Source: an uncultured Acidobacteriota bacterium (GTDB lineage Bacteria; Acidobacteriota; Vicinamibacteria; Fen-336). From it: DNA of 64,000 bases. The notes below the pieces were generated by a model. The model had not been told where the DNA came from. It did not search any database and saw nothing but the letters and a program-made list of their open reading frames with translations. This document shows, one piece after another, positions 9,777 to 54,075 of the stretch. The position numbers and the translations under genes were made by a program. Position 1 is the first letter of the stretch. The number at the start of each line of letters is the position of its first letter. The stretch is from contig CAVTBK010000004.1 of NCBI GenBank assembly GCA_963732935.1, positions 258,327 through 322,326 of the forward strand. The letters run 5' to 3'.

Positions 9777-9959
9777 TCAATCGCTTCGGGGGCGAGGCGG
9801 CTTCCCCCCGTCGTCTCCACCCGCGACCAGGTCGTGGCGGGCATCGTAGACGCCGTCCATCATCAGCTCGGTGGGCCGCTCGGCCCCGTCCCGGTAGGTC
9901 GCAGCGGTCGCACCGTAGCGCAGGATCCCGAGCTTCCTCAGCAGATCGAACAGGGTCAT
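9777..9959 (-). CDS. Hypothetical 60-aa ORF upstream of pspA
   Basis: MTLFDLLRKLGILRYGATAATYRDGAERPTELMMDGVYDARHDL…; no family recognised and may not be coding. Confidence 0.2.
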   Translation of the reverse strand: MTLFDLLRKLGILRYGATAATYRDGAERPTELMMDGVYDARHDLVAGGDDGGKPPRPRSD

Positions 9960-10048
9960 GGCTCCTCCCCGCGCCGCGGGACGGCGCTCGCCGCGTCGCG
10001 ACGGCGATCATTGCATCGGCCAGGTCCGGCGTGGTACGAGGTGCGGCG

Positions 10049-10879: not shown

Positions 10880-10884
10880 GTCGC

Positions 10885-13863
10885 TCAGCGCGCCGGAGCC
10901 GGGATGCTCCGGGCCATGCGCTCGACGTACCTCTGCAGCTCCGGGTCGATCGGCGCCTGCTCGTCGATGGAGCGAGCGGTGTCGAGGGCGTCCTCGGCCT
11001 CCCGCCACTTGTCCTGGCGGGCGAGCGCGGCCGCCAGCCGCAGCCAGGCGGAGACGTTCGCCGGCTCGAGACGCAGCAGGGCCCGGTGCGCCTGCTCGGC
11101 ACGCGGGTAGTCGCGGCGGTCGAGCGCGATCAGCCCCAACCCCTCCCAGGCGCGGGCGCGCGTGGGATCGACGCGCACGGCCTCGGCCAGCTGGGACTCG
11201 GCTTCTTTCTGTCGGCCCTGCTCGAGCAGGAGCGCGCCGGCGCGTGCGCTGGCGGTCGCGTCGGCGGGGTCGCGACGCTTCGCCGTCTCGAAGGCCCGGA
11301 TCGCGCGCTCGGCCTGTCCCGCCCTCGCGTAGCGCTCACCCAGCCGATCGAAGAAGACCGCGGAGATCGCCCCGCCGGCGGCGAGCAGGGGCTGACCCGC
11401 GATCCGGCCGGTGACGTCGCCGGAGGCACGGCTCAGCGCCTGGTATTGAGCCGCGGCCGAGCGCGCGGCTGCGGCGGGCCGGATCACGTTGCGCCGCGGC
11501 GCCACCAGCTCGAGGTACGGATAGTCGTCCGTGTTGAGCCGGACCCGGGCATGGGGACCGGTCCCGAGCCATCGCTCCATGTCCTTTCGTCCCATGGCCC
11601 AGGTCGCCGCGAGACCGACCGGGTCCTGGAGAACGCGCGTCGAGCGCAGGTCGCCCCCGATCCGCTCGTCACCGAAGGCCTGCTCGAGCCGCGGCCAGTC
11701 GAGCGCGCGGGGCTCAAGGCTGCCGACCAGCAGCAGGTCGGCCCCGAGGTTGCGCGAGCCGTCCTCGCTTTCGGCCGGAGGGACCAGCCAGAGCGAGGCG
11801 TGATCGAAGACGGACAGGAAGGTCCGGAGCTCGACCTTCACGTCCGCGGGCTCGAGATCATAGTAGTGGAACCACTGGCCGAAGACCCCGCCCGGCCGGA
11901 GCGCCGCGCGCGCGGCCAGGTAGAACTCCCGCGTGAAGAGGTTCGAAACCCCGGTGATCCACGGGTTCGAGGGCTCGGAGACGATCACGTCGTAGCCGGC
12001 AGGTCGGCGCAGCAGGTGGTTCCGTCCGTCGGCGAAGATGATGCGGAAGCGCGGATCGCTCGCCAGGCCTCCGCTGAGATCGCCGAAGAACCGTGCGGCC
12101 TGCCAGGTCGCGGGCTCGATCTCGACGCACTCGAGCTTCTCGAGAGGGTAGCGCGCGGCCGAGGCTGCGGTGGCGCCCGCGCCCCACCCGATCACGAGCG
12201 CCGTCCGTGGGGCCGGGTGAAGCAGGAGCGGCACGTGCGCGATGAACTTCTGGGTGACCACGTCCTCGCGGCCGCTGCCCGCGTCGGTCTTCCCGTTCAG
12301 GGACAGGAAGCGGCGACCCGGGTGCTCGCGCGACTCCGAGACGGCGACCACCGCCTCCTTTCCCTCCCGGTAGAACAGCAGCGAGCGCTGCTGCCGGAGC
12401 CAGTGCCCGAGCCCGCTCGGCGGGACCAGCCGGTCGCTCCAGTCCAGGCCGTAGCGATAGACGCCGGACGACATCAGCACCGGATCCCAGGGGTGGAAGC
12501 GCGGCACCACGACTCCGAGAGCCGTGGCCAGGAGCGCGAGCGCCGCCAGCCGGAGCGGGCGCCGCGCGCCGGCGCTCTCCAGGAGAGCCAGCAGCGCGCC
12601 CAGCAGCAGCAGGCCGGCAAACACGAGGTACGGCGGCTGGAGGCCGAGCCGGGGTACCAGCCAGAGGCCGGTGACGAGCGCCGCGACCACGGCCGCGATC
12701 GTGTTCCAGGCATAGAGGCGGCCCGCCGCCTGCTGCGAGGCGCCCGGTGCGACGTTCAGCAGGTGCAGGAGCATCGGAAAGGACAGCCCGAGCAGGACCG
12801 TCGTGGGCAGCAGCACGGCGAGGCAGAGAAGGAGGCTCGCCGCCTGGTGCGCGGCGAAGGAGACCGGCAGCAGTCCCAGCAGTCCCAGCCACAGCGACGG
12901 CAGCCGGCCGATCAGCCATTGGCCGGCGAGGATCCCGGCGCCGGCGCCCGCGAAGACCAGGGCGACCGCGCGGGCCGGGCGACCGATCCGGCCCCGCACG
13001 CGCGCGTAGAGCAGCGAGCCGAGGGCGATCCCCAGCAGGACCGCGAGCAGCATGGTGTTGAAGGCGTAGGTCGAGGAGCCGATCACGAGCGCGAGCGAGC
13101 GCGTCCAGACGAGCTCCACTCCGAAGGTGGCCGCGCCCGAGAGGGCGGCGAGCGCGAGGCCGAGGGCCGCCCCCGGGGCGCCGACGGGCGCCGCGGGGGG
13201 CGAAGGGGCGGGAGCCGGCGGCGGCCCCAGCTCTCGCGCGAGCCGCAACGCGACACCGCCCACGAAGAGGCTCGAGGCGGCGGCGGCCACGAGCGTTCCC
13301 CGTACCCCGACCGTCTCCATCAGCACGAAGCCGGCGAGGGCGACGCCGAGGGCGCCGCCCAGGGTATTGAGAAGGTAGAGCCGTCCGAAGCCCGCACGGA
13401 CGTCGGCGCCCGCGCGCTCGAGGAACGCGAGCGCGAGCGGCACGGTGGCGCCCAGCAGGACCGTCGCCGGCAGCAGCACCAGCGCGGAGAGCAGGACGCG
13501 GCCGGCGGCCTCGACGGGAGCGCCGATCGCCGCGCGCGCGACGAGGCCCCCGTAGGCCCAGGGCAGGGCACGCAGCAGCGGCAGGGTCAGAAGAGCGCTG
13601 GCGCCGACCGCCAGCTCGACCCGCGCATAGTCGCGGAGCGGGTCGCGGCTGGGCCGGCGCGCCGCGAGGGCGCTGCCCAGGGCGAGCCCGCCCAGGAAGA
13701 CGGCGAGCACCATCGCCACGGCGGAGGTGGTGTTCCCGAAGATGAGGCCGAACGAGCGCATCCAGAGGGACTCGTAGACGAGAGCCGCGGCACCCGAGAC
13801 GGCCACCAGCAGAGGCAGCAGACGGGCGGCACGGCCGAGCGCGACGTCGGCGGGACGTGTCAT
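10885..13863 (-). CDS. Membrane-fused spermidine synthase-like (PABS fold) protein with C-terminal TPR repeats
   Basis: ~12 TM helices in the N-terminal 450 aa. The central methyltransferase/PABS-like domain carries VIGWGAGATAASAARYPLEKLECVEIEP…DGRNHLLRRPAGYDVIVSEPSNPW. The C-terminal ~200 aa are TPR-like. Confidence 0.85.
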   Translation of the reverse strand: MTRPADVALGRAARLLPLLVAVSGAAALVYESLWMRSFGLIFGNTTSAVAMVLAVFLGGLALGSALAARRPSRDPLRDYARVELAVGASALLTLPLLRALPWAYGGLVARAAIGAPVEAAGRVLLSALVLLPATVLLGATVPLALAFLERAGADVRAGFGRLYLLNTLGGALGVALAGFVLMETVGVRGTLVAAAASSLFVGGVALRLARELGPPPAPAPSPPAAPVGAPGAALGLALAALSGAATFGVELVWTRSLALVIGSSTYAFNTMLLAVLLGIALGSLLYARVRGRIGRPARAVALVFAGAGAGILAGQWLIGRLPSLWLGLLGLLPVSFAAHQAASLLLCLAVLLPTTVLLGLSFPMLLHLLNVAPGASQQAAGRLYAWNTIAAVVAALVTGLWLVPRLGLQPPYLVFAGLLLLGALLALLESAGARRPLRLAALALLATALGVVVPRFHPWDPVLMSSGVYRYGLDWSDRLVPPSGLGHWLRQQRSLLFYREGKEAVVAVSESREHPGRRFLSLNGKTDAGSGREDVVTQKFIAHVPLLLHPAPRTALVIGWGAGATAASAARYPLEKLECVEIEPATWQAARFFGDLSGGLASDPRFRIIFADGRNHLLRRPAGYDVIVSEPSNPWITGVSNLFTREFYLAARAALRPGGVFGQWFHYYDLEPADVKVELRTFLSVFDHASLWLVPPAESEDGSRNLGADLLLVGSLEPRALDWPRLEQAFGDERIGGDLRSTRVLQDPVGLAATWAMGRKDMERWLGTGPHARVRLNTDDYPYLELVAPRRNVIRPAAAARSAAAQYQALSRASGDVTGRIAGQPLLAAGGAISAVFFDRLGERYARAGQAERAIRAFETAKRRDPADATASARAGALLLEQGRQKEAESQLAEAVRVDPTRARAWEGLGLIALDRRDYPRAEQAHRALLRLEPANVSAWLRLAAALARQDKWREAEDALDTARSIDEQAPIDPELQRYVERMARSIPAPAR

Positions 13864-13905
13864 GGCACGTCGGCCAATCTAGCATTTCGCTATGATCGAG
13901 TCTTC

Positions 13906-14475
13906 ATGACCGCCACCTGGCGAGAGGCGCTGGTCGCCTCGCTGGAGAGGCTCGTTCCTTCCGACCCGGAGGAGGAGCGCGACCGCGCCCGGATCCTCGC
14001 CTTCCTGTGCGAGCACCCGCAGCCCTTCGACCGCGCCATCGCCGAGGGCCACCTGACCGGTTCCGCGATCACCGTCTCGGCCGACGGCGCGCGGGTCCTC
14101 CTGCTCCACCATCGCAAGCTCGAGCGTTGGCTCCAGCCCGGCGGGCACGGCGATCCCGGCGAGACGAGCGGCGAGGAGGTGGCTCTCCGCGAGGCGCGCG
14201 AGGAGACGGGCATCGAGGGACTCGGCCTGCATCATTCGGCACCGCGGCCGCTCGACGTCGACGTCCACGCGATCCCCGCCCGCGGCGCGGAGCCGGCCCA
14301 TGCGCACCTGGACCTGCGCTACCTGGTGGTGGCTCCGGAGGGTGCCGCGCTCGCGCCCGACCTGGCGGAGCTCAGCGCGATCCGCTGGCTGGCGTGGGAC
14401 GAGACGGACGCGCTGGGGCTCGACCGGGGGCTGAGGCGCGCGCTCGCGAAGGCGCGGGCGATCGTGGGACACTAG
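13906..14475 (+). CDS. NUDIX hydrolase
   Basis: ATG 13906; Nudix box GGHGDPGETSGEEVALREAREETGIE. Confidence 0.85.
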   Translation: MTATWREALVASLERLVPSDPEEERDRARILAFLCEHPQPFDRAIAEGHLTGSAITVSADGARVLLLHHRKLERWLQPGGHGDPGETSGEEVALREAREETGIEGLGLHHSAPRPLDVDVHAIPARGAEPAHAHLDLRYLVVAPEGAALAPDLAELSAIRWLAWDETDALGLDRGLRRALAKARAIVGH

Positions 14476-16861: not shown

Positions 16862-18166
16862 CTACGGGCGCTCCTTCACGATCTCGCCGCCCTTCATGAC
16901 GAAGAACACCTTCTCGGTCGCGCGAACGTCCTGCAGCGGATCCCCGGGGACTGCGACGAGATCAGCCAGCTTCCCCTTCTCGAGGGTGCCACGGCTGTCG
17001 GCCACTCCGAGCAGGTCCGATGCACCCGCCGTGGCCGCAAGCAGGGCCTGGGCCGGCGTCATGCCGTTCTTCACCATCAAGGCGAACTCGCGGGCGTCCT
17101 CGCCGTGAGGCTCGACCCCCGAGTCCGTGCCGAAGGCGACCTTGACGCCGATCCGCACGGCGTGCTGGAACATCTGCTGCATGCGGGCGGCCGCGGCGCG
17201 CGCCTTGTCGGCGATCGCCGGAGGGTATTCGTCCGCCTTCTCGCCGACCCACTCGCCGGCGAAGAGTGTCGGCACCAGGTAGACCCCCTTCGCCTTCATG
17301 AGCTCCAGGGTGTCATCCTCGAGGAAGGTCCCGTGCTCGATGGAGTCGACACCGGCCTGGATCGCCATCTTCGCGGCGGCGTCTCCGTGGCAGTGGGCAG
17401 CCGCCTTCCGGTGCCAGGCATGGGCTTCCGAGACGATCGCGTCCATCTCGGCCTGGCTCAGCTCCGGCACGTCCACCGGATCGGAGAGGGAGAGGACGCC
17501 ACCCGAGGGCATGAACTTGATGACGTCGGCCCCGTACTTGATCTGGTAGCGCACGGCGGCCCGGCACTCGTCGGCGCCGTTGCAGACCCCCTGAATAGGC
17601 CCCGCCGGAAGGACGAGCTGCGGTGGGAAGGGGGCCTGATCGGCGTGACCGCCGGTCGAACCGATCGGGTAGTTGCACACCAGCATCCGGGGCCCCTCGG
17701 CGACGCCCGCGTTGATGGCGTCCCGCAGGCCGAGCGCGATGTAGTCGCTCGAGCCGAGGTCCCGAGCCGTCGTGAAGCCCGCCTCGAGGGTCGCGCGCGC
17801 GTAGCGGGCGCCGTAGAGCGCCTGCTCGGCGGGGAAACGCAGCATGCGGTGGTAGAAGTCGCGATACCACTCGTCGGACATCTGAGCCGACATGTGGACG
17901 TGGGCGTCGATGAACCCCGGTAGCAGCGTTGCGTCCCCGAGGTCGACCACCCGGGCCCCGGAAGGGGCGCTGAGGTTCGCGCCCACCGCGGCGATGCGGT
18001 CCCCCTCGACCAGGACCGTTCCGGGAGCGAGCGGCGTCTCCGAGGTCGAGGTGAAGACGCGGGCCGCCTTGAGGAGGATCGCCGTCGCGGGCTTCTTGGG
18101 GGCGGGTGCCGCAGCGACCGTCGAGGCGGCGAGGGCGGCGGCCAGGGCGAGGGAGAGCTTCCTCAT
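16862..18166 (-). CDS. Amidohydrolase-family metallohydrolase with signal peptide
   Basis: Start at MRKLSLALAAALAAS (ATG 18166). LPGFIDAHVHM metal-binding motif, DVIKFM, HCHGD, FGTDSG, and an EKGKLADLV C-terminal motif typical of the amidohydrolase superfamily. Confidence 0.85.
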   Translation of the reverse strand: MRKLSLALAAALAASTVAAAPAPKKPATAILLKAARVFTSTSETPLAPGTVLVEGDRIAAVGANLSAPSGARVVDLGDATLLPGFIDAHVHMSAQMSDEWYRDFYHRMLRFPAEQALYGARYARATLEAGFTTARDLGSSDYIALGLRDAINAGVAEGPRMLVCNYPIGSTGGHADQAPFPPQLVLPAGPIQGVCNGADECRAAVRYQIKYGADVIKFMPSGGVLSLSDPVDVPELSQAEMDAIVSEAHAWHRKAAAHCHGDAAAKMAIQAGVDSIEHGTFLEDDTLELMKAKGVYLVPTLFAGEWVGEKADEYPPAIADKARAAAARMQQMFQHAVRIGVKVAFGTDSGVEPHGEDAREFALMVKNGMTPAQALLAATAGASDLLGVADSRGTLEKGKLADLVAVPGDPLQDVRATEKVFFVMKGGEIVKERP

Positions 18167-18217
18167 GCCATCTCCTTCTTCGAAGTGAGCGCTGGACAAC
18201 GAGTCTAGCACCCGGTG

Positions 18218-20228
18218 ATCCGCCGCCCCGGGCGAGCCCGAGCCGGGTGGCGGTGCGGACCTCCGGCTCGAGCTCGATCCGGCCCGAGACTACGGCCGCG
18301 GCATGAGCACCTCGACCTGCACCGACTGCTTGGTGCCGTCGGCCCGTACGTAGTCGAGACCGGTGCGCAGGTACGTGTCCCGGTCTGGCGGAAGCGCGAG
18401 CTGGAAGTCGGTCAGCAGGGGCTTGCCGTCGCCGAGCATGGGCTTCGCCGGGGACAGCCACTGCTGGGGGAGCCACTTGCCGTCGACGCGAGCGGCCGCG
18501 CTCATCGCGAACGGGCCGTCGACGCCGGGACCCGGGTCGAGCGTCCAGCGCGACGTCAGCAACGAGCCCGGCTTCCAGCGCAGCGGGAAGCGCCAGGAGA
18601 GCACCAGGTCGGGCACGTCGAGGAGCCCGCAGCGCGCCACGCGCAGGCTGACGTCGGACACGCACCGGCAGATCGGCGCCGAGGCGCCGACCGGCGCCGG
18701 CGACAACACCGCGCACGGCAGCTCGCCCTGCGAGCCGTCCGAAGACTCGGCAGCGCCGATGTCCACGGCTCGGCCTTGGACGCGCCGCGCCTGGTACACG
18801 TCCCAGGGGCCGATCTCCGGCGCCGAGTTCGAGCCGGCGTCGATCGCCGGCGAGCCGGGGTCCAGCCGGTAGTCGTCCGTGGCGGGGTCGACGAAATGCG
18901 GGTCCTCGAACAGGTTGTTCGAACCCGTGACGCCCGCCGGCCCGTCGACACCGTTGCCGAACACGATGCTGTTGTCGAGGCGCACCGCGCCGCCGCCCAC
19001 CGCCACGCCGGCACCGGTGTGGCCCGTCACCGTGAGGTTGGTCAGGTACACGGTCCCGCCCTCAAGAGCCGTCGCGAGGATGCCGCTGCTGTCGCCGCCC
19101 CCGCCCGCCACGACGCTGTCCGAGAGCACTGCCACACCCGTCCCGCCATCGGTCACGGCGACCTGCCACGCCCCAGCGTCGTCGGCCGGCACGTTGCGCA
19201 GGATCTGGTTGCGGCGGGCCGTCAGGCGCGCCGCGCCCGGACCGTCGTACGAGCTCGTCGCGAAGAGCGAGATCTCGGGTCCGCCCTGGTGCGTGTCCGA
19301 CGAGCTGCGGTTGTCGACGAACCAGTTGTCCCAGACGTCGACGGTGGCGTTCTGCGCGGCGTTTGCGGACAACGCCGAACCGTAGGTCTGGCCGGGCGCG
19401 TGGATCGTATTGCGGAGGAAGTGGTTGGACTCGAGCAATACGTTGCTGTGGCCAGTCGCGTAGACGAAGGCCCCACCGGTGGCTCCGGCATCCGTGGCCT
19501 CATGCGAGTTGTCCGTGAAGTAGTTGCCTCGCCAGGTCATCCGTGCGGATCCGACGAGATAGGCATGCGCGAAGGCCCTGCCGCTGGCCTCCACCGTGTG
19601 GTTGTCCCAGACCGCGCTCTCCGACACCTCGACCTGGGCATGGTCGTCAGCCCAGATGTCGAGCCCGGAGGCGCTTGGCCCCGGCCCACCGCCCGTCAAC
19701 ACCAGACCTCTCACGATCAGCACGCCCGAACTGCTCGCCTGCAGCACGGGACCGTCGAGAGCGCCCTGGACGACGGTGTTCTCCGCGGCGGCGGGGTCCT
19801 GCGGAGAGGGATGAGGCACGCCGCCGAAGCTGTCTGACCATCCCCCGCTGATCGTGAGCGACTCACCGGAAGCGACCCAGACGCTGAGGTTCTCTGGGTA
19901 ACGGCCGCGCGCGACCCGGATCTCGACGGGTCTCGCCGACGTTCCCGCGGCGTCGATCGCGGCCTGGATCGTCGCATAGCCGCCCGCACGCCCGACCGTC
20001 AGCACCGACGGATCCGCGCTGGCGGCCGACGCCAGGGCGCACGCCCCCACGACCGACACGATCACTCGCACTCCTCTTCCGGCCTGCCTCATGGTTCGCT
20101 CCTCGGCACCGTGATGGCGCCTTCTGCTTGTTTGGGCTTTCCTTCTGTGGCGCACGCCCGGGCGGGGCGTTACGGGAGGGGGCACGCCAAGCCGCCTGTA
20201 ACGCCGGACCCGCTGCGCACGCCCAAGT
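18218..20228. repeat. Tandem direct repeat unit 1 (~2.0 kb): beta-helix gene plus ~135 bp of its 5-prime region
   Basis: Aligns base for base with 20282-22301 at both ends (for example 20093-20228 versus 22165-22301). The central part of the gene has diverged. Confidence 0.85.
18290..20092 (-). CDS. Secreted right-handed parallel beta-helix protein with a choice-of-anchor-Q-like motif (copy A of a tandem pair), 600 aa
   Basis: Start MRQAGRGVRVIVSVVGACALASAASA (signal peptide; ATG 20092, RBS GAGGAG). Repetitive G/N/T/S/V-rich beta-helix core (…NHFLRNTIHAPG…VDNRSSSD…ILRNV…). NNLFEDPHFVDPATDDYRLDPGSPAIDAGSN matches the choice-of-anchor-Q signature. C-terminal ~190-aa Cys-containing domain. Confidence 0.8.
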   Translation of the reverse strand: MRQAGRGVRVIVSVVGACALASAASADPSVLTVGRAGGYATIQAAIDAAGTSARPVEIRVARGRYPENLSVWVASGESLTISGGWSDSFGGVPHPSPQDPAAAENTVVQGALDGPVLQASSSGVLIVRGLVLTGGGPGPSASGLDIWADDHAQVEVSESAVWDNHTVEASGRAFAHAYLVGSARMTWRGNYFTDNSHEATDAGATGGAFVYATGHSNVLLESNHFLRNTIHAPGQTYGSALSANAAQNATVDVWDNWFVDNRSSSDTHQGGPEISLFATSSYDGPGAARLTARRNQILRNVPADDAGAWQVAVTDGGTGVAVLSDSVVAGGGGDSSGILATALEGGTVYLTNLTVTGHTGAGVAVGGGAVRLDNSIVFGNGVDGPAGVTGSNNLFEDPHFVDPATDDYRLDPGSPAIDAGSNSAPEIGPWDVYQARRVQGRAVDIGAAESSDGSQGELPCAVLSPAPVGASAPICRCVSDVSLRVARCGLLDVPDLVLSWRFPLRWKPGSLLTSRWTLDPGPGVDGPFAMSAAARVDGKWLPQQWLSPAKPMLGDGKPLLTDFQLALPPDRDTYLRTGLDYVRADGTKQSVQVEVLMPRP

Positions 20229-20281
20229 TTGGGAGGGTGAAGCGCGGGTCGGGCTGCCATTGAGGCCGCGCCCTCGGGGCG

Positions 20282-22301
20282 GCGATCCGCCCCAGGCGAG
20301 CCCGAGCCGGGGCGGTGCGGCCCCCCGGCTCGAGCTCGATCCGGCCCGAGACTACGGCCGCGGCATGAGCACCTCGACCTGCACCGACTGCTTGGTGCCG
20401 TCGGCCCGTACGTAGTCGAGACCGGTGCGCAGGTACGTGTCCCGGTCCGCCGGAAGCGCGAGCTGGAAGTCCGTCAGCAGGGGCTTGCCGTCGCCGAGCA
20501 TGGGCTTCGCCGGGGACAGCCACTGCTGGGGGAGCCACTTGCCGTCGACGCGAGCGGCCGCGCTCATCGCGAACGGGCCGTCGACGCCGGGACCCGGGTC
20601 GAGCGTCCAGCGCGACGTCAGCAACGAGCCCGGCTTCCAGCGCAGCGGGAAGCGCCAGGAGAGCACCAGGTCGGGCACGTCGAGGAGCCCGCAGCGCGCC
20701 ACGCGCAGGCTGACGTCGGACACGCACCGGCAGATCGGCGCCGAGGCGCCGACCGGCGCCGGCGACAACACCGCGCACGGCAGCTCGCCCTGCGAGCCAT
20801 CCGAAGACTCGGCAGCGCCGATGTCCACGGCTCGGCCTTGGACGCGCCGCGCCTGGTACACGTCCCAGGGGCCGATCTCGGGCGCGGAGTTCGAGCCGGC
20901 GTCGATCGCCGGCGAGCCGGGGTCCAGCCGGTAGTCGTCCGTGGCGGGGTCGACGAAATGCGGGTCCTCGAACAGGTTGTTCGAACCCGCGACGCCCGCC
21001 GGCCCGTCGACACCGTTGCCGAACACGATGCTGTTGTCCAGGTGTACATCACCGCCCAGGCTGGTCACGCCGGCACCGGTGTGGCCGGTCACCGTCAGGT
21101 TGGTCAGATACACCGACCCGCCCTCGAGAGCGGTCTCGCCGACGCCACTGCTGTCTCCGCCACCGCCCGCCACGACGCTGTCCGAGAGCACCGTCACGCC
21201 CGCCCCGAGGCTGCAGACGCTGATCTGCCAGGCTCGGCCGTCGGCCGGGACGTTACGCAGGATCTGGTTGCGGCGGGCCGTCACCCGCGGCGACCCGGGA
21301 CCGCCGATCGAGCCGCTCTCGGCACAGAGCTGTATCGCCGGCCCCGGGTCGCCTGTGTCCGAGACGCTGCGATTCTCGACGAACCGGTTGTCTCGCACGT
21401 CCATCGTGGCGTCCTGCTGGGCATGCGCGGTTAACGCTGATTCGTAGGCCTGATCCGGCGCGTGGATCGAGTTGCGCAGGAACTGATTCGCCTCGATCCA
21501 CACGCTGCTGTGACCGGTCGCGAGGACATCGGCGCCTCCGTTGACCCAGGCCCCGGCGCCCGTGGCTTCGGACGAGTTGTCCGTGAAGTAGTTGCCTCTC
21601 CAGGTCATTCGTGCCGATCCGTCGACGCGAGCCTGCGCGAAGCCCCAGCCGCCCGAGTCCACGACCGTGTGGTTGTCCCAGACCGCGCTGTCCGACACCT
21701 CGACCTGGGCAGAATCGTGGGCCCAGATGTCGAGCCCGGAGGGCGTTTGGCCCCACCCCGCCGCCCGTCAGCACGAGACCCTTCACGATCAGTACGCCCC
21801 AACTGGTCGCCTGCAGCACGGGTCCGTCGAGAGCGCCCCGGACGACGGTGTTCTCCGCGGCGGCGGGGTCTTGCGGAGAGGGATGAGGCACGCCGCCGAA
21901 GCTGTCTGACCATCCCCCGCTGATCGTGAGCGACTCACCGGAAGTGACCCAGACGCTGAGGTTCTCGAGGTAGCGGCCGTGCGCGACCCGGATCTCGACG
22001 GGTCTCGCCGACGCTCCCGCGGCGTCGATCGCGGCCTGGATCGTCGCATAGTCGCCCGCACGCCCGACCGTCAGCACCAACGGATCCGCGCTGGCGGCCG
22101 ATGCCAGGGCGCACGCCCCCACGACCGACACGATCACTCGCACTCCTCTTCCGGCCTGCCTCATGGTTCGCTCCTCGGCACCGCGATGGCGCCTTCTGCT
22201 TGTTTGGGCTTTCCTTCTGTGGCGCACGCCCGGGCGGGGCGTTACGGGAGGGGGTGCGCCAAGGCCGCCTGTAACGCCGGACCCGCTGCGCACGCCCAAG
22301 T
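20282..22301. repeat. Tandem direct repeat unit 2
   Basis: See unit 1; period ~2070 bp. Confidence 0.85.
20352..22164 (-). pseudogene. Copy B of the beta-helix gene; the reading frame is broken by one extra C near 21741 (pseudogene or sequencing error)
   Basis: The N-terminal 134 aa and C-terminal ~220 aa are essentially identical to copy A at nucleotide level. The middle ~250 aa is ~65-70% identical. The track splits it into 20352-21698 and 21253-22893 in different frames. Aligned to copy A, the site reads gccctcc versus gcctcc. Confidence 0.6.
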
Positions 22302-22398
22302 GCGCGAGGACAACGTGCGCATCGGTCCCGGTCGCGGTGGCCGTCGGTCCAATCGAAACCGGAGGTGCTAGAATGCCGTCTCGCTTCAGCCCAGCAGA

Positions 22399-22980
22399 AT
22401 GGCCACTCACGAAGATGCGGACCTCGTCCAGCGCTTTCTCCGCGGGGAACCGGCCGCCGCGGCGAGGATCGACGGCTGGATCGCCGCCGCCGCCTGGTCT
22501 TTCAGGCGCCGCCTGCTCTCGGAGTGGGACGACCTGCTCCAGGAGATCCGGCTCGAGGCCCTGCGCCTGCTCGGCGCCGGACATTTCCGCGGCGAGTCCC
22601 GGCTCAAGACCTACTTGTGGCAGGTGGCCTGTCACACCTGCCTGGACGCCGTGCGCCGGCAGCGGCGGCGCACGTTCCTCGACCTCGATGCCATTGAGGC
22701 CGCGCCCTCGGGGGCTCCCTCGCCGTTCGACGTCCTGGCGCGTCGAGAGCACCGCGCCGCGGCGCTTCGCGCCCTCGAGACCCTCTCGGACGAGTGCCGG
22801 GACGTCTGGACGAGACTGCTGCAAGGCGCGAGCTATCGCGACATCTCGCGGGCGCTGGCGGTGTCCGAGGGCGCTTTGAGGGTGCGCGCACACCGCTGCC
22901 GCAAGTCGGCGGTCGAAGCCTATCGCGCGGCGACGCGACTCGCCCCGCGCGCCGCGGAGGGTGAGGATGCTCTGCCCTGA
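22399..22980 (+). CDS. ECF (sigma-70 family group 4) RNA polymerase sigma factor
   Basis: Region-2-like DLLQEIRLEALRLLGAGHFRGESRLKTYLWQVACHTCLDAVRR and region-4 HTH SYRDISRALAVSEGALRVRAHRCRKS. Its stop overlaps the start of the downstream anti-sigma ORF by 14 nt. Confidence 0.85.
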   Translation: MATHEDADLVQRFLRGEPAAAARIDGWIAAAAWSFRRRLLSEWDDLLQEIRLEALRLLGAGHFRGESRLKTYLWQVACHTCLDAVRRQRRRTFLDLDAIEAAPSGAPSPFDVLARREHRAAALRALETLSDECRDVWTRLLQGASYRDISRALAVSEGALRVRAHRCRKSAVEAYRAATRLAPRAAEGEDALP

Positions 22981-23857
22981 GGCCGTCGAGAGGCTTCCCG
23001 AGCTGCTGAACGGCAGCCTGCCGTCGGAACCGAGGGCGGAGGTCGAAGCCCACCTCGCCGATTGCGCGCCCTGCCGCGAGGAGTGGGAGGAGACACGCCA
23101 AGGTGCCGCGGTCTTCAGCGCGCATCTCCCGACGGACGCGCTCGTGGCGCTCGCCTGGGACCGCCCGCTGCCCGGGCTCGATCCGGACCTCGCCCGCCGT
23201 CATCTCGACGCCTGCGCCGACTGTCGCGAGGACCTGGCACTCGCGCGCGAGAGCCGGTCTCGCGAGAGGGCCGAGGAACGCCTCGCCCCGCGCCGCGTCT
23301 CCTGGGCGCTGCCGGCGAGCCTGGCCGCGGGTCTCGTGGCGGCGGCGCTCGTCGCAGGCTTCGCCTTGGGATCGCGGCGCGCGCAGACCCATCTCGCCCA
23401 GGCGGACGCCGCCCGGCGGCAGGCCGTCGAGACAGCCGCGCGCTTCGGAGCCGAGACGGACCACCTGCGTCAAGTCGAGTCGGAGCTCCGCGCTCGCCTG
23501 GCGCGTCTCGCCGCGCCCCGGATCAACCTGCCGGTGCTCGAGCTGCTGCCCGGCTCCACGCTGACCCGCGGCGCCTCGCAGCCCCGAGCCCGAGCTCGAC
23601 CTCGGCGCCGAGGACACGCTCGCCGCGCTGGTCCTCAGCGTTCCCACGAACCGAAGCGGCCTCACGGCCGAGCTGCGCGACGTACGGGGGCGGTTGCTCT
23701 GGAAGGCCGCCGGCCTGGAGCCGAGCACCCTCGGCGGCTATGCGCTCGCCGTGCCGGCCGATCTGCTCCCCGAGGGGCGGCTGACTCTGTCCCTCGTTCC
23801 CGAACACGGCGGGCCGACGCTCGCCAGGTTGCCCTTCCGGGTAGGCGGACACCGTGA
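22967..23857 (+). CDS. Anti-sigma factor, ZAS/zf-HC2 type, single TM. Only the first ~200 aa of this ORF look genuine; the true C-terminus is probably reached via frame switches (see findings)
   Basis: Two HxxxCxxC motifs (EAHLADCAPCREEW; RHLDACADCRED), then the TM helix WALPASLAAGLVAAALVAGFALG, then coiled coil. After ~23575 the frame turns into R/P/G-rich nonsense while the +1 frame reads like protein. Confidence 0.65.
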   Translation: MLCPEAVERLPELLNGSLPSEPRAEVEAHLADCAPCREEWEETRQGAAVFSAHLPTDALVALAWDRPLPGLDPDLARRHLDACADCREDLALARESRSRERAEERLAPRRVSWALPASLAAGLVAAALVAGFALGSRRAQTHLAQADAARRQAVETAARFGAETDHLRQVESELRARLARLAAPRINLPVLELLPGSTLTRGASQPRARARPRRRGHARRAGPQRSHEPKRPHGRAARRTGAVALEGRRPGAEHPRRLCARRAGRSAPRGAADSVPRSRTRRADARQVALPGRRTP

Positions 23858-24092: not shown

Positions 24093-27000
24093 GTGGCCCT
24101 CGATTGTGAGCGAGACGGACGCGCGCTCGCGGTCTCGCTCTTCCCCGACCAGTGGGGCCTCGACGCCCAGTTGTCAGGAGACGACGCTGGCGAGCCCTCG
24201 GCCGCCGCCTGGACGCGACTCGAACGGGCGGTGAGCCTGATCGAAACGGACCTCGAGCAGGCGCGCCGAACGGCAGTCCAGGCGGCGAACGCCGCTCCTA
24301 CGCCCAGCGCTCGTGCGCTCGTGCGCTTCGCCTTCGCCGAGGCGTTACGGCGACGCTCGCGCTACGCCGAGGCCGCGCGCGAGTACGAGGAGGCGATCCG
24401 GATCGAGGAGCCGCTGGCGGGGAACACTCTGGTGCTCGCCCGCCTCTACGAAGGCGCGGGCTTCGCCGCCTACAGCCTGCTGAAGGACCTGCCGCCCGCA
24501 CGCAGGCGGCTCGAGCGCGGGCTCGCGATCCTCGAGAAGGAGGCGCCCGAGAGCCTCGCCTGCGCGCGCACGCTGCAGGCGCTCGCCCAGACGCTGGACT
24601 CCACCACCGACGCGCAGCGGCTGCTGCTTCGGGCCTCGGCGCTCGCGGAGAAGCTGGCGCCCGATACTCTCACCCACGCCTCGATCCTGTACTCGCTGGC
24701 GTGGGTGACGCCCACGGCGGAGCAGCTCGAGTGGGCACGGCACGCCCTCGCGATCCGCGAGCGTCTGGCGCCGGACAGCGTCGAGCTGGCGGCGGCGCTG
24801 CGTCTCGTCGGTCTCTCGCTGGACAGCTTCGGACGCCGGCAGGAGGCCGAGGCGCACGTGAAACGCGCGGCGCGGCTGCTGGAACGGATCCAGCCGAAGG
24901 GCACGGCGCTCGCAAGCACCCTCGAGAGCCTCGGCGCGATGGCCATGGACTGCGGCGAGCTGGCCGACGCCGAGCGCGCGCTGCGCCGTGCCCTCGCCTT
25001 GCGCCTCGAGCACGGCTTCGCCAGCCACACCGCGATCACGCTCCTGAACCTGGTCGATCTCCTGGTCCTGCGGCGCGATCTCGACGAAGCGCGCGTGGAC
25101 GCGGAGAGGGCGCGCACCATCCTGGAGCGCGAGCTTCCCGACAGCGAGTACCTCGGCTACGCCTGCCGGAGCCTCGGCGAGATCGCCCTGGAGACGGGCG
25201 ACGTCTCCGGCGCCGAGACCTGGTTCCGACGCGCGGTCGCGATCTTCCGCAAGGTCAACCCCACCGGCTTCGCCTTCGGTACCGCCGAGAACGACCTCGG
25301 CCAGGCCCTCGCCCGCGCCGGGCGCCTGGAGGAGGCCCGGGTCGCGCACGAGCACGCGCTGCAGCTCGTCCGCGACGTGGACAACGTCCGTGCGGCGACG
25401 ATCCAGGACGACCTCGCCGCCCTGGCGCTCCAGCGCGGAGACCTGGACACGGCAGAGACGTGGTTCGAAAAGGCGCTGGCCGCACGCCGCCGGCTCGCGC
25501 CCGGCAGCATCTGGGAGGCGATGTCCGAGCACTCCCTCGGGGTCCTGGCACGCCGACGCGGGCGACCACAGCAGGCGCTCGAGCACTTCCAGCGCGCGGT
25601 CGACGCGCTCGACGCCCAGGCACGCCGCTTGGGAGGCGCGCCGGAGGTGGCCGCGGCCTTTCGTGCCCACTACCAGGACTTCTATCGCGATCTCGAGGGG
25701 CTCCTGCTCGAGAGCGGCCACCCGACCGAAGCCTTCACCGTCCTCGATCGGGGACGCGCTCGCGTCTTGCTGGCGCTGCTGGCTCAGCGTGCGATCGTGC
25801 TGCCCGAGCTGCCCGCCGACCTGGAGCGCGAGCGTCGGGAGGCCGATGCCGAGCACGATGCCGTCGTCGAGCAGCTCGCCACCCTCGCCGACCACGACCC
25901 CAAGCGCGCCGAGCTCACCCGGCGCTACGCGGAAGCGCGGCGCCGGCAGGACGAGGTGCGTGCTCGCATCCGTGCCGCAGCGCCGCGCGCGGCGGCGCTC
26001 CTCGATCCGGAGCCGCTCGACCTCGACGGTGTGCGACAGGCCCTCGAGCCCGGCACGCTGCTCCTCGCCTACAGCCTCGGCGCGGACGGCAGCCGCGTCT
26101 ACGCCGTCGGGCCGGGCCCGGCGGATTTCGCCGTCCACGACCTGGCGGCGACCGAGCCTGAGATCCGTCACGCGGTCGAGAGTTTCCGCACGCTCCTGGA
26201 GCGGCGCCGCGGCCCGCTGCTGCGGCACGGACTCGACGAGCAGGCACGCGCCCTGGGGCGGACGCTCGTGCAGCCGGCGGCCGGCGCCCTGGCCCGCGCC
26301 CGGAGGCTCCTGATCGTCCCCGACGGCGTCCTGAACCTGCTCCCTTTCTCGGCGCTCCAGCTCCGCGCTTCGGACGGCCGCTTCCGCTGGCTCGTGGAGG
26401 CGGCGCCGCCGCTCCACCTGGCCGCGTCGGTCACGCTCTACGCGCAGCTCGCGGAGCGTCGAGGGCGCAGCGCCGGGCACGAGGTCGTGGCGTTCGGCGA
26501 CCCCGCCTACGCCGCCGGGCCGGCGGCGGCGCACGACGCCGCAGTGGCCCGTGGGATGGAATGGGGTCTTCGACTGGAGCCGCTGCCTGCGGCGCGCGGG
26601 GAGCTCGCCGCGCTGCGTCAGCTCGCACCCGGCGAGACACGCCTGTGGCTCGGTGCCGAGGCGACCGAAGAGCGAGCGAAGCAGGTGGGATCCGAAGCAC
26701 GGATCATCCATTTCGCGACCCACGGTTTCGTGGACGAGGACTTTCCGCTCGAGTCGGGCCTGGCGCTGGCAACGCCGCCGCCGGGCGACGAGGGCCGCGA
26801 CAACGGCCTGCTCCAGGCCTGGGAGGTCTTCGAGTCGGTCCGGATCGACGCCGACCTCGTCACCCTTTCGGCCTGCCGCACGGCCCTCGGCAAGGAGGTC
26901 GGCGGGGAGGGCCTGGTCGGTCTGACCTGGGCGTTCGAGTATGCGGGCGCGCGCAGCGTGCTGGCCTCGCTGTGGGAGGTGAACGACGCGTCCACAGCCG

Positions 27001-27149
27001 AGCTGATGCGGCAGTTCTACAGCGCGCTTCGCGCTGGAGCACCAACGGCGAAGGCCTTGCGCCAGGCGCAACTGAAGCTGCTGCACCGGCCGGCGACCTC
27101 TGCGCCGTTCTTCTGGGCCGCCTTCCAGCTCGTCGGCGACTGGCGGTAG
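24093..27149 (+). CDS. TPR-repeat + CHAT (caspase-like protease) domain protein. The start is uncertain; this is probably the C-terminal part of a longer anti-sigma-PDZ-TPR-CHAT polypeptide
   Basis: Many TPR-like repeats (residues ~60-520). C-terminal CHAT domain with the catalytic pair …ARIIHFATHGF… and …ADLVTLSACRTALG…, followed by …RSVLASLWEVNDASTAELMRQFY. The frame is open upstream to 24006 and encodes the end of a PDZ domain. Confidence 0.85.
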   Translation: MALDCERDGRALAVSLFPDQWGLDAQLSGDDAGEPSAAAWTRLERAVSLIETDLEQARRTAVQAANAAPTPSARALVRFAFAEALRRRSRYAEAAREYEEAIRIEEPLAGNTLVLARLYEGAGFAAYSLLKDLPPARRRLERGLAILEKEAPESLACARTLQALAQTLDSTTDAQRLLLRASALAEKLAPDTLTHASILYSLAWVTPTAEQLEWARHALAIRERLAPDSVELAAALRLVGLSLDSFGRRQEAEAHVKRAARLLERIQPKGTALASTLESLGAMAMDCGELADAERALRRALALRLEHGFASHTAITLLNLVDLLVLRRDLDEARVDAERARTILERELPDSEYLGYACRSLGEIALETGDVSGAETWFRRAVAIFRKVNPTGFAFGTAENDLGQALARAGRLEEARVAHEHALQLVRDVDNVRAATIQDDLAALALQRGDLDTAETWFEKALAARRRLAPGSIWEAMSEHSLGVLARRRGRPQQALEHFQRAVDALDAQARRLGGAPEVAAAFRAHYQDFYRDLEGLLLESGHPTEAFTVLDRGRARVLLALLAQRAIVLPELPADLERERREADAEHDAVVEQLATLADHDPKRAELTRRYAEARRRQDEVRARIRAAAPRAAALLDPEPLDLDGVRQALEPGTLLLAYSLGADGSRVYAVGPGPADFAVHDLAATEPEIRHAVESFRTLLERRRGPLLRHGLDEQARALGRTLVQPAAGALARARRLLIVPDGVLNLLPFSALQLRASDGRFRWLVEAAPPLHLAASVTLYAQLAERRGRSAGHEVVAFGDPAYAAGPAAAHDAAVARGMEWGLRLEPLPAARGELAALRQLAPGETRLWLGAEATEERAKQVGSEARIIHFATHGFVDEDFPLESGLALATPPPGDEGRDNGLLQAWEVFESVRIDADLVTLSACRTALGKEVGGEGLVGLTWAFEYAGARSVLASLWEVNDASTAELMRQFYSALRAGAPTAKALRQAQLKLLHRPATSAPFFWAAFQLVGDWR

Positions 27150-27393
27150 CTCCCGGCCCCATCATTTGCGGCGTCCGGCGCGCAGTCGACTATCCTGGTG
27201 GAGCAGCGACGGGTGCCTGTGCCCTGGCAGCGGAAGGGGGTCGCGCATGATGTGGGTCGCCTCGATCAAGACGCGCCGCGTCGCCGTTTCTGCGCTCGCG
27301 GCCCGACTACACGACCGAGATCCTCCGCACGAGCCGGTCGGGCATCTCGGTGAGCTGCCGGGTCCGCTGAGCGGCCCGGCGGAGGTCCCCCTC

Positions 27394-28861
27394 ATGCGCA
27401 TCTCTCGATGGATCGTGCTCGTGCTCGGTGCGTGCCTCCTGCCTGCGGGACTCTCGGCCCAGGCGCGGCCCACGCCGACCCCCTCGCCGTCCGGGCGGCG
27501 GAACCCGTTCCTGATGAGCCCGGAGGAACGCGCGCGCCTGGACCGGCTGTCGCGTGAGGACCACGCCGACATGATGAGGCAGCTCGGCATCACGAAGCTT
27601 CGGCCCGGCTACGACGGCTGGGCGACCGCCGGCAGTCCGGGCGCCGCGAACTACGACGAGGCCAAGGCCAACCCCTACCCCGACTGGCCGGACGTGCTGA
27701 CCATGAAGGACGGCCGGAAGGTGACGACGCCGCAGCAATGGTGGCAGGAGAGACGCCCGGAGATCGTCCGCGACTTCGAACGCGAGGTCTACGGCCGCGT
27801 GCCCGCCGACGCACCCAAGGTGGCCTGGAACGTGGCCGAGACCGCGAGGACGACGGTCGGCGGCCGGCCGGTCGTAGCCCGACGCGTGATCGGGCACGTC
27901 GACAACTCCGCTTGTCCCTCGATCGCGGTGGACGTCGAGATGGCGGTCGTGCTGCCCGCGCGCGCCAAGGGGCCGGTTCCGGTCCTGATCATGTTCGGCT
28001 GGGGCAACATGCCCGACGAGCCGGTGCCGCACTTCCCGGGCTTCCAGGAACCAAAGGCTCCACCCTCCCCGAGTCAGCTCGTCGCCGCGGGCTGGGGCTA
28101 CGTGTCACTCAGCCCCTCCAGCATCCAGGCCGACAACGGGGCCGGCCTGACCGAGGGCATCATCGGGCTCACCAACCAGGGCAAGCGCCGCACGCCCGAA
28201 CAGTGGGGCGCGCTCCGCGCCTGGGCCTGGGGAGCAGCGCGCGCGCTCGACTACCTCGAGACCCTGCCCGCGGTCGACGCCAAGCGCGTGGGCATCGAAG
28301 GAGTCTCGCGCTACGGCAAGGCCGCTCTCGTCACCATGGCCTTCGAGCCGCGCTTCGCGGTCGCGCTCGTCGGATCGTCCGGCGAAGGGGGCGCCAAGCC
28401 GCACCGCCGCAACTTCGGCGAGGCGGTCGAGAACCTCACTGGTTCCGGTGCCTACCACTGGATGGCCGGCAACTTCCTCAAGTACGGCGCCGCCGAGTCG
28501 TCCTTCGGCAGCAGGAACGCGAACGACATTCCGGTCGACGCTCACGAGCTGATCGCCCTGTGCGCACCGCGCCCTGTCTTCATCAGCTACGGGGTCCCCG
28601 AGAACGGCGACGCCAAGTGGCTTGATCAGAAGGGGAGCTTCATGGCGGCGGTGGCCGCGGGGCCGGTCTATCGCCTCCTCGGCGCGCGCGACCTCGGCGT
28701 GAGAGAGGACTACCGCGTGGCCAGGATGCCGCCCCCCGGGACGGGCCTCCTGGACGGTGCCCTCGCCTGGCGCCAGCACGACGGCGGGCCACGAGGACCG
28801 CTCGAACATGAGCTTCTTCATCGCCTGGGCCGACCGGATGCTGCGTGCCACGATCCCCTAG
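27394..28861 (+). CDS. CE15-like glucuronoyl esterase with signal peptide; apparent 1-nt frameshift near 28795
   Basis: ATG 27394 (RBS GGAGG); signal peptide MRISRWIVLVLGACLLPAGLSAQA. IEGVSRYGKAALVTMAFEPRFAVALVGSSGEGGAKPHRRNFGE resembles the CE15 G-C-S-R-x-G nucleophile region (V in place of C). The last ~20 aa (…HEDRSNMSFFIAWADRMLRATIP*) are in the +1 frame and end 25 nt before the next gene. Confidence 0.7.
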
Positions 28862-28885
28862 AATCCTTCCTGCGGGAGGTAACGC

Positions 28886-31093
28886 ATGGAAACACGGCTC
28901 CCTCATCTCGCGAGTCGTTTCGGCGAGGCTGCGATCGCCGGGGTCCTGACGGCCGTCCTGGCCGGATGTGGCGGCGGCGAGACGCCGGGCGTCACTTCCA
29001 GCAGCGGCAGCCCGGACGAGCGTGCCGACCAGCTGATCGCCCAGATGACGTTGGACGAGAAGATCCAGCTGGTCCACGGCGGCGCGGCCACCGACTGGTG
29101 GAACCACGTCCTCCCGCACGGCGGCGGCTGGGTGCCCGGCATCCCGCGGCTGGGGATCCCGGACCTCTACCTGGCGGACGGAAGCGTCGGCCTGGCCAAC
29201 AAGGCGGGGCCGGCGACCGCCCTGCCCTCCTCGATCGCCAGCGCCGCCAGCTGGGATCTCGAGCTGGCCTACAGGTACGGTCAGGTGATCGGGACCGAGG
29301 CGGCGGCCAAGGGCATCAACGTGAACCTCGGCGGCAACGTCAACCTGATCGGACGCGAGCCCCGCGACGGGCGCACGTTCGAGACCAAGGGCGAGGACCC
29401 GACCCTGGCGGGTCGGATCACGGCGGCGCACCTGCGCGCGATCCAGGACCAGCACGTGATCGCCGGCGTCAAGCACTTCGCCCTCAACGACCAGGAGACC
29501 GGCCGCTTCACTGCCGACGTGAGGATCGGCGACCGCGACGCGCGGGAGAGCGACCTGCTCGCCTTCGAGATCGCGGTCCGCGACTCGGACGTCCAGTCGG
29601 TGATGTGCTCCTACAACCTCGTGAACGGCGTCTACGCCTGCGAGAATCCCGAGCTGCTGAACGGCGTGCTGAAGGGTGATTGGGGCTTCCGGGGCTTCGT
29701 CATGTCGGACTGGGACGCCACCCACAGCACGGTCCGCGCGGTCCAGAGCGGGCTCGACCAGGAGCAGCCGGAGAACCTGTATCTCGACACTGACCTGAAG
29801 CAGGCCGTCCAGAGCGGAGCGGTCCCAAGCTCGAGGCTCGACGACATGGTCCACCGCATCCTGCGCGCGATGTTCGCCGCGGGAATCTTCGAGCACCCCC
29901 CGGCGGTGGGCTCGATCGACGCTGCGGCGGGCGCCGCTGCCGCGCAGGAGGCGGAGGAGCAGGGCGCGGTACTGCTGAAGAACACCGGCCTCCTACCGCT
30001 CGACCCCTCGACACACGACTCGATCGCGATCATCGGGGCGCACGCCGACGTCGGCGTGCTCTCGGGCGGCGGCTCGGCGCAAGTGATACCCATCGGCGGA
30101 CCGGCCCTCACCGAGGGCTACCCCAACCCGCCCGGCTGGTCCCAGGTCGTCTGGGTGCCCTCCTCGCCGCTGGCGGCGATCCGCGCGGCGGCCCTCGGGG
30201 CGAACGTGCGCTTCGACGACGGCACGAACGCCGCCGCCGCGTCGGCTCTGGCAGCGGCCTCCACCGTGGCGGTGGTGTTCGTCGCCCAGTGGGAGAGCGA
30301 GGGCATGGATCGCCCCAGCCTGAACCTGGTCGACGTGGTCCACTCGAACCCGATCGACCAGGACGCGCTGGTAGCGGCGGTCGCCGCGGCCAATCCGCGC
30401 ACGGTCGTGGTGATCGAGAGCGGCGGTCCCGTCGTGATGCCGTGGCTGGCGCGGGTCGGCGCCGTGCTCGCGGCCTGGTATCCCGGGCAGCGCGGGGGCG
30501 AGGCCATCGCCAACATCCTCTTCGGCGCGGTCAATCCCTCCGGCAAGCTCCCGCTCACCTTCCCGGCGCGGGTCGGGGACCTGCCGCGCCCGACCATCGA
30601 CGTCCCCGCGAACTCGACAACGCCCTTCACGGTCGACTACACGATCGATGGCTGGCGGGTCGGCTACAAGTGGTTCGACTCCCGGCACCTCACACCGCTC
30701 TTCCCGTTCGGCTACGGGCTCTCCTACACGACCTTCTCGATCGGCAACCTGCAGCTCGCGGCGACGCCGGCCGGGACCGACTCGGCGTTCCAGGTGAGCC
30801 TCGAGCTGCAGAACACCGGAGGCCGGGCGGGCGCCGAGGTGGCGCAGGTCTATCTGGATCTGCCCGCCGCGACGGGCGAGCCGCGACGGCTGGTGGGTTG
30901 GCAGAAGGTCGCCCTCGACCCCGGCCAGCAACAGCGGGTGACGATCGAGGTCAAGGCAGGCGACTCGGCGCACCCTCTCTCGTACTGGGACGAGGGTTCG
31001 CACGCCTGGGTGGTCGCTTCGGGGACGTACGGCGTCCAGGTCGGCGACTCCTCGCGCCACCTCCAATCGGCCGGTACGTTCCACGTGCCCTAG
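28886..31093 (+). CDS. GH3-family beta-glucosidase/beta-xylosidase lipoprotein
   Basis: ATG 28886 (GGGAGG upstream). Lipobox LAGC. GH3 motifs …KHFALNDQE…, nucleophile region GFVMSDWDA, and the C-terminal fibronectin-like domain. Confidence 0.9.
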   Translation: METRLPHLASRFGEAAIAGVLTAVLAGCGGGETPGVTSSSGSPDERADQLIAQMTLDEKIQLVHGGAATDWWNHVLPHGGGWVPGIPRLGIPDLYLADGSVGLANKAGPATALPSSIASAASWDLELAYRYGQVIGTEAAAKGINVNLGGNVNLIGREPRDGRTFETKGEDPTLAGRITAAHLRAIQDQHVIAGVKHFALNDQETGRFTADVRIGDRDARESDLLAFEIAVRDSDVQSVMCSYNLVNGVYACENPELLNGVLKGDWGFRGFVMSDWDATHSTVRAVQSGLDQEQPENLYLDTDLKQAVQSGAVPSSRLDDMVHRILRAMFAAGIFEHPPAVGSIDAAAGAAAAQEAEEQGAVLLKNTGLLPLDPSTHDSIAIIGAHADVGVLSGGGSAQVIPIGGPALTEGYPNPPGWSQVVWVPSSPLAAIRAAALGANVRFDDGTNAAAASALAAASTVAVVFVAQWESEGMDRPSLNLVDVVHSNPIDQDALVAAVAAANPRTVVVIESGGPVVMPWLARVGAVLAAWYPGQRGGEAIANILFGAVNPSGKLPLTFPARVGDLPRPTIDVPANSTTPFTVDYTIDGWRVGYKWFDSRHLTPLFPFGYGLSYTTFSIGNLQLAATPAGTDSAFQVSLELQNTGGRAGAEVAQVYLDLPAATGEPRRLVGWQKVALDPGQQQRVTIEVKAGDSAHPLSYWDEGSHAWVVASGTYGVQVGDSSRHLQSAGTFHVP

Positions 31094-44965: not shown

Positions 44966-45008
44966 TCGTTCGCCTCGGGAAGCAAGAGAAAGACGGACGG
45001 AGGAAACG

Positions 45009-47277: not shown

Positions 47278-47285
47278 CGGCCACC

Positions 47286-53906: not shown

Positions 53907-53950
53907 CACATCGCGAACAAAGCCGTGATGCGGTTTCACATCGCCAACAA
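53907..53950 (+). promoter_or_regulatory. Direct repeat CACATCGCGAACAA / CACATCGCCAACAA (30-bp spacing) upstream of the TonB-receptor promoter: candidate activator/repressor site
   Basis: 53907-53920 and 53937-53950; 13/14 identical; sits in the most AT-rich island of the window, immediately 5-prime of the -35 box. Confidence 0.4.
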
Positions 53951-53955
53951 TGATG

Positions 53956-53985
53956 TTGACATCCCTCCCGTCCTCGACCTATAAA
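53956..53985 (+). promoter_or_regulatory. Sigma-70-like promoter candidate TTGACA-N18-TATAAA for the TonB-dependent receptor gene
   Basis: TTGACA 53956-53961, 18-nt spacer, TATAAA 53980-53985, ~90 nt upstream of ATG 54076. Confidence 0.5.
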
Positions 53986-54018
53986 GCCGTGCTTTTGTCC
54001 CTGTCCGGGACGAAATCA

Positions 54019-54048: not shown

Positions 54049-54075
54049 AAGGTTGGCAGACTAGGGAGGCTGAGA

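Follow-up and report, generated by a model that had tools for sequence, protein, structure and literature searches.

Two adjacent genes in a 64-kb window of DNA from an uncultured Acidobacteriota-like bacterium (contig CAVTBK010000004.1; "the window" is this whole stretch of 64,000 nucleotides) encode the same putatively secreted beta-helix protein, and they are nearly alike at both ends and distinctly different in the middle. The question raised by this locus is whether the middle has changed unusually fast or the ends have been kept unusually similar. ORF (open reading frame) listing, repeat finding and pairwise alignment identified two units, arranged head to tail on the minus strand and repeating every 2062-2073 bp. 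Homology extended over 18213-20236 in unit A and 20281-22309 in unit B, bounds that lie close to those of an earlier note made from the sequence, which had described a tandem duplication of about 2.0 kb. No third copy was found when the unit was searched against the whole window with blastn and tblastn. Both copies, here called A and B, keep a complete leader and a start codon, and the leader common to them is 135 nt long with the ribosome-binding site GAGGAG.

The overall identity of 90.1% over 2019 aligned columns was very unevenly spread, in line with the mosaic pattern described in the earlier note. A two-breakpoint maximum chi-squared analysis gave a value of 201.9, with 21.0 the highest of 200 permutations. 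The longest perfect run was 326 bp (18411-18736) versus 118 for the 99.9th percentile of the null, and in a change-point analysis the best Bayesian information criterion (BIC) was obtained with three blocks, which we call the 5' block, the core and the 3' block (Table 1). The 3' edge of the core is abrupt, with 30 bases at 53% identity followed by 745 bases at 98.8%. The two flanking blocks are themselves unequally diverged (Fisher p = 0.027).

These counts changed the picture of the blocks in several respects. The 5' regions and first ~130 codons had been called base-for-base identical, but we found the leaders to differ by 3 substitutions and 1 indel and the first 136 codons by 20 nucleotides and 10 amino acids (92.6% amino-acid identity). 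The last ~220 codons had been said to differ by one amino acid; that difference, P569A, is real, but a second one, T389A, is also present in the last 219 codons. An identity of ~65-70% had been given for the core, which in fact averages 78% at the nucleotide and 72.5% at the amino-acid level and drops to 62-69% only in its most divergent 100-200 bp.

We calculated nonsynonymous (dN) and synonymous (dS) divergence by the method of Nei and Gojobori for three codon segments. The dS values were 0.094 for codons 1-136, 0.506 for codons 137-385 and 0.029 for codons 386-604, with dN/dS ratios of 0.37, 0.37 and 0.14, respectively, so that core dS is 5-17 times flank dS. Silent sites follow the same mosaic, and the low-identity core is therefore older DNA and not a faster-evolving protein; as a whole it is under purifying selection (dN/dS 0.37). 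The transition to transversion ratio of 15:5 in the 5' block is that expected of young divergence, and the 68:90 of the core that of old divergence. Blocks that are significantly more alike than the rest, synonymous sites included, are the mark of gene conversion between tandem paralogues, and such blocks are present here. Whether the duplication itself is old or young, the mosaic was made by homologous recombination. Relative rates measured against 7 outgroups were symmetric, with the A residue ancestral at 22 sites and the B residue at 24, and both cores therefore evolved as working genes. The G+C content at third codon positions (GC3) is native in both cores, at 0.86-0.89.

To place the amino-acid differences, strands of the core were classed by DSSP assignment on an AlphaFold2 model that was built on 25 homologues and had a mean pLDDT (predicted local distance difference test) of 87.6. 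The model contains a regular right-handed beta-helix at aa 29-380 with rungs of three or four strands. One sheet of the helix (the variable sheet in Table 1) had 23 of its 48 residues changed, versus 44 of 200 elsewhere in the core (Fisher p = 5e-4). A comparison of strands with loops was not significant (p = 0.26), and only the split by sheet was. The earlier suggestion that the variable part might form one face of the helix is thus supported, in that replacements concentrate on a single predicted sheet. Changes alternate along its strands, for example LSANAA/LTAHAQ and ISLFAT/IQLCAE. When the strands were divided into a putative outward register (17 of 22 residues changed, dN 0.88, dS 0.84) and a putative inward one (6 of 26 changed, dN/dS ~0.25), an assignment made after the pattern had been seen, the outward columns also showed the greatest variability within the family (3.0 bits vs 2.1 bits). 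In the predicted structure this pattern would fit an exposed face that either determines specificity or is unconstrained, and positive selection does not follow from it. Since the outward residues of one sheet appear to have changed at a roughly neutral rate, the two proteins probably have different binding partners.

The junction of the array carries information on its origin. The units are separated by 52 bases outside both genes. The first 27 of them align in register with the start of the sigma-proximal intergenic DNA, which adjoins the copy B leader, and elsewhere in the window they match at 18/27 positions or fewer. The remaining 25-bp scar abuts the downstream end of unit B, and its match was not reproduced in any of 100 shuffles (0 matches). 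Because this piece is identical to the interior of the ECF sigma gene, the duplication originally reached into that gene, and the unique DNA of the junction, together with its specific sigma-gene match, argues strongly against an assembly loop. Exactly across the junction, downstream of copy B, is a perfect 7-bp GC hairpin (GGGGCGG-CGAT-CCGCCCC, 20276-20293). On the mRNA strand it lacks a trailing U-run and is therefore not an intrinsic terminator of the canonical kind.

Table 1. Coordinates of the tandem array, its blocks and junction, and the adjoining genes (positions in the window unless given as aa of copy A; Ig, immunoglobulin).
Feature	Position	Strand	Remarks
Copy A gene	18290..20092	-	Intact, 600 aa
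Copy A domain order			Signal-peptide-like N-terminus; right-handed beta-helix (~aa 29-380); choice-of-anchor Q (aa 404-450); low-confidence linker; C-terminal Ig-like beta-sandwich (aa 475-597)
Copy B gene	20352..22164	-	Same gene, interrupted by +1 frameshift
CCC run holding the extra base	21741..21743	-	Copy A has CC at the matching place
5' high-identity block, unit A	19736..20227	-	97.0%; partner in unit B ~21808-22300; leader/promoter region, ribosome-binding site, signal peptide, N-terminal cap
Divergent core, unit A	18977..19735	-	78.2% nucleotide identity; partner ~21039-21807; ~seven beta-helix rungs
3' high-identity block, unit A	18231..18976	-	98.8%, includes the 326-bp perfect run; partner ~20299-21038; last rungs, choice-of-anchor Q, C-terminal domain, ~60 bp past the stop codon
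Variable sheet	aa 144-149, 175-180, 208-212, 241-246, 274-279, 309-315, 336-342, 363-367		
Junction piece	20228..20254	+	In register with 22301-22327 at ~61% identity
Junction scar	20255..20279	+	25/25 identical to 22689-22713 inside the ECF sigma gene
Inverted repeat GGCGTTAC-N24-GTAACGCC	20149..20223		Copy A leader
Same inverted repeat	22221-22296		Between copy B and the sigma gene
ECF sigma factor gene	22399..22980	+	Divergent from copy B; source of the 25-bp scar
zf-HC2 anti-sigma gene	22961-23857		Downstream of the ECF sigma gene
TPR-CHAT gene	24093-27149	+	1018 aa, directly after the ECF sigma and zf-HC2 anti-sigma genes

Taking these data together, we lean toward an old duplication, both ends of which were later homogenized by gene conversion, over a recent duplication followed by replacement of a core. 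The earlier note had put forward two explanations and left the choice between them open. Its old duplication with converted flanks fits best; the variant with core replacement was not among its options. The order and age of the events that we infer are as follows. An illegitimate tandem duplication would have run from ~18213, which is ~47 bp upstream of an amidohydrolase start codon, to a point inside the ECF sigma gene equivalent to 22713, and its ends would have been joined with at most 1-2 bp of microhomology. Later, ~363 bp would have been deleted from the copied leader and 5' end of the sigma gene, which left the diverged 27-bp piece and the 25-bp scar. Non-reciprocal homologous recombination between the units (interlocus gene conversion) would have homogenized the promoter/leader, signal peptide and N-terminal cap at one end and the last rungs, choice-of-anchor Q segment, C-terminal domain and 3' flank at the other, and the ~seven central rungs would have kept their original divergence (dS ~0.5). 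Within these rungs, the interior of the helix would have been held by purifying selection and the outward residues of one sheet would have drifted at a nearly neutral rate.

Two further observations argue for this history. The 27-bp piece has diverged by ~39%, as much as the synonymous sites of the core (pS 0.37), which gives unconverted neutral DNA and the core the same apparent age. In addition, the unequal divergence of the two flanks suggests separate conversion events.

Besides the after-the-fact choice of registers mentioned above, three points weigh on the other side. The scar is 100% identical to its source, which would have a chance of ~1e-5 if it were as old as the core, where neutral DNA differs by ~37%; for an old duplication one has to add that conversion by the sigma gene maintained the copied fragment up to a recent deletion. 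Nested conversion tracts forming a gradient had no significant support, the three-block model being sufficient by BIC. Finally, no genome with an orthologous pair was present in the databases searched, the closest relative being 47% identical and single-copy.

The strongest competing account, which we regard as unlikely but worth serious attention, is that the tandem duplication happened recently and that homologous recombination then gave one copy a divergent core, from an allele or homologue of another lineage, with the conserved ends serving as recombination arms. A perfect 25/25 scar is what a young junction would show, and flanks at 97-99% identity, two sharp breakpoints and the sufficiency of three blocks all suit this account. 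A young duplication, however, leaves unexplained the burst of differences in the 27 bp between leader and scar, which are only ~61% identical, and the agreement of their divergence with the synonymous differences of the core would have to be a coincidence. The difference in divergence between the flanks also speaks against it, as does the fact that neither core has a foreign composition and both are equidistant from the outgroups. No candidate donor above 47% identity was found among 5.8 billion proteins, though the lineage is poorly sampled.

We consider it improbable that the locus reflects an assembly artefact, in which the alleles of one single-copy gene from two strains were joined into a tandem or, more narrowly, the frameshift of copy B is a consensus error. 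Judged by its closest relatives, the DNA probably comes from a metagenome-assembled genome (MAG), and repeats with arms that are 99% identical are hard to assemble and polish. Yet traversal of an assembly graph would not create a junction (20228-20279) made of sequence found nowhere else in the window and a fragment of the sigma gene. For the frameshift alone the case is less clear. The predicted break in copy B was confirmed: a short run of C, located 65 bp inside the 5' breakpoint, has one base more than its counterpart in copy A. All other indels between the copies are multiples of 3, and with one C removed copy B reads through as 603 codons. A coarse GC3 phase plot compared with ORF boundaries showed no other frame break in the 64-kb window, which counts against an artefact, but this one base may still be an error. 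The extra C would inactivate copy B, and it is either a very recent one-base insertion or a consensus error, because copy B shows no earlier decay (22 vs 24 ancestral-residue sites). A phase-variable contingency gene was rejected since the run is only 3 C, with no long homopolymer or short tandem repeat, and programmed +1 frameshifting was rejected since there is no slow codon or stop at the GCC-C site.

The other explanation in the earlier note was that the duplication is recent and that the exposed face of the beta-helix then diversified rapidly, here taken as point mutation driven by selection. It can be drawn from the concentration of replacements on outward residues of one sheet with dN close to dS, but we find it very improbable, given that core synonymous sites are as diverged as old DNA (dS 0.51 vs 0.03-0.09 in the flanks), that dN/dS is 0.37 across the core, that synonymous changes are numerous in buried residues and in the other sheets as well, and that the symmetric mismatch spectrum speaks against a diversity-generating retroelement. 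In that spectrum adenine showed no bias (28 vs 35 A positions of 157), on which ground we rejected the core as a retroelement target, and there was no reverse transcriptase among the neighbours scanned. Nor does the locus resemble cassette-based antigenic variation of the pilE/pilS type, as there are only two copies and both have a complete leader and start codon; no further paralogue was present in the protein database searched.

The family to which these proteins had been assigned, beta-helix and choice-of-anchor-Q-like, was borne out by profile searches. Copy A matched Pfam Beta_helix PF13229 with 36 bits (cut-off 25.9) at aa 154-301 and NCBIfam choice-of-anchor Q NF041518 with 37.4 bits (cut-off 25) at aa 404-450. 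Although both models thus score above their curated cut-offs, as in other proteins of this kind, an extra C-terminal Ig-like domain sets the present subfamily apart. In the AlphaFold2 model an N-terminal helix is consistent with a signal peptide, and the beta-helix leads into the choice-of-anchor Q segment, after which come a linker predicted with low confidence (452-473) and an Ig-like beta-sandwich (475-597). The C-terminal domain of ~150 aa (18290-18737, copy A aa 451-600) is predicted to be Ig-like, with four conserved Cys, and had no Pfam or NCBIfam match. It is common only to the closest homologues, P0003-P0008 and P0012, and is 100% conserved between the copies except for P569A.

Foldseek searches of the PDB returned weak, generic matches, namely to PL6 alginate lyase, phage tailspike depolymerases, pectin methylesterases and AlgG for the protein and to adaptin-ear-like sandwiches for its C-terminal domain. 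A profile of the family matched the first ~115 residues of CE8 pectinesterases (5c1e) with E = 7.6e-11, but the match ends before the catalytic Gln/Asp motifs, and the Pfam Pectinesterase model had no match to copy A at E <= 1, so we do not regard the protein as a CE8 pectinesterase. The fold and the gene neighbourhood point to a possible carbohydrate-binding or carbohydrate-modifying role. The N-terminal sequence suggests that the protein would be secreted. A lipoprotein signal was rejected by inspection, because the six positions preceding the lipobox-like VGAC include an Arg and the Cys of VGAC is not conserved in homologues.

The beta-helix genes are divergent from an ECF sigma/anti-sigma-CHAT module, as had been stated, and the ECF sigma, zf-HC2 and CHAT-TPR genes were all recovered as neighbours. 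The TPR-CHAT gene beside them pairs a caspase-like protease with the sigma/anti-sigma pair. The arms of the inverted repeat found upstream of each copy give GTAACGCC-N13/14-CGCC on both strands, and these four are the only occurrences in the window of a motif that was chosen after seeing the sequence. The repeat could be a pair of candidate back-to-back ECF-type promoters, shared by the sigma operon and the beta-helix gene, and the ECF sigma factor may thus regulate the beta-helix genes. A scan of 18100-22500 detected no sigma-70 promoters or intrinsic terminators, and nothing credible was found in this region with Rfam.

An arrangement of this kind could conceivably act as a minimal two-cassette switch, a speculation to which we attach little credence. 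Conversion through the near-identical arms would move the ligand-facing core, or the frameshift, between an expressed and a silent copy, under control of ECF sigma, anti-sigma and CHAT through the duplicated back-to-back GTAACGCC promoter-like element. If true, a secreted beta-helix protein would thereby change its specificity or be turned on or off.

Few relatives of the pair were found. Among 5.8 billion proteins, the closest one outside the contig, P0003, was 47% identical; it is single-copy, and there was no sigma-factor domain among its scanned neighbours. Relatives in genomes were at most 36% identical and came mostly from Thermoanaerobaculia/Acidobacteriota MAGs, none with a tandem pair, and no match turned up in metagenomes scanned for a 30-mer taken from the identical C-terminal region.

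Mosaic divergence of tandem paralogues through interlocus gene conversion is well described (bioRxiv 10.1101/2025.10.29.685298), with HMA4 of Arabidopsis halleri as an example (bioRxiv 10.1101/2025.10.29.685298, PMC3749932), and concerted evolution is known in prokaryotes (PMC6053082). Like those tandems, the present locus has blocks of near-identity beside blocks of old divergence, with sharp boundaries and with synonymous sites affected too; unlike them, it consists of two copies in an uncultured bacterium, and concerted evolution is read from one genome. The outer-membrane paralogues homA/homB and babA/babB of Helicobacter pylori are ~90% identical overall, with nearly identical 5' and 3' ends and differences confined to the middle. 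Alike ends and a divergent middle are described for homA and homB, and the 3' segments of babA and babB undergo concerted evolution, conversion between bab loci having been demonstrated and being RecA-dependent (PMC3960876). The near-identical ends and variable middle are shared with our pair, and in H. pylori the middle is the ligand-facing part of a surface protein. The H. pylori genes, however, are dispersed loci for beta-barrel adhesins, whereas ours are adjacent copies with a beta-helix fold, and conversion there was seen experimentally and is coupled to phase variation.

The recombination mosaic is thus the ordinary, well-known evolution of duplicated genes, of which this is a new example in an uncharacterized protein family, and current understanding is unchanged by it. 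What it does offer is a clean case of partial concerted evolution seen within a single genome, that of an uncultured Acidobacteriota-like bacterium, and the surviving junction reveals how the array came about. A further lesson is that an apparently hypervariable core need not mean fast evolution, the two readings being separated by the dS profile. The sheet-specific variation marks the probable ligand-contact face of this beta-helix/choice-of-anchor Q family and may guide biochemistry.

Elsewhere in the window we noted a fusion of GH52 (beta-xylosidase family) and GH10 (xylanase family) in a single ORF of 1161 aa (44952-48437, plus strand). It lies in a xylan-utilization neighbourhood that includes a glucuronyl-esterase-like gene (27166-29679), a GH3 gene (28886-31093), a GntP permease (37151-38551) and a TonB-dependent receptor (53950-57672). 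A 1505-aa ORF at 9958-14475 on the plus strand is mostly an antisense artefact of high G+C content and overlaps the real spermidine-synthase-TPR gene (10885-13863, minus strand); by eye, only its last ~190 codons resemble a real gene, which is Nudix-like. Long spurious ORFs of this sort are common across the window.

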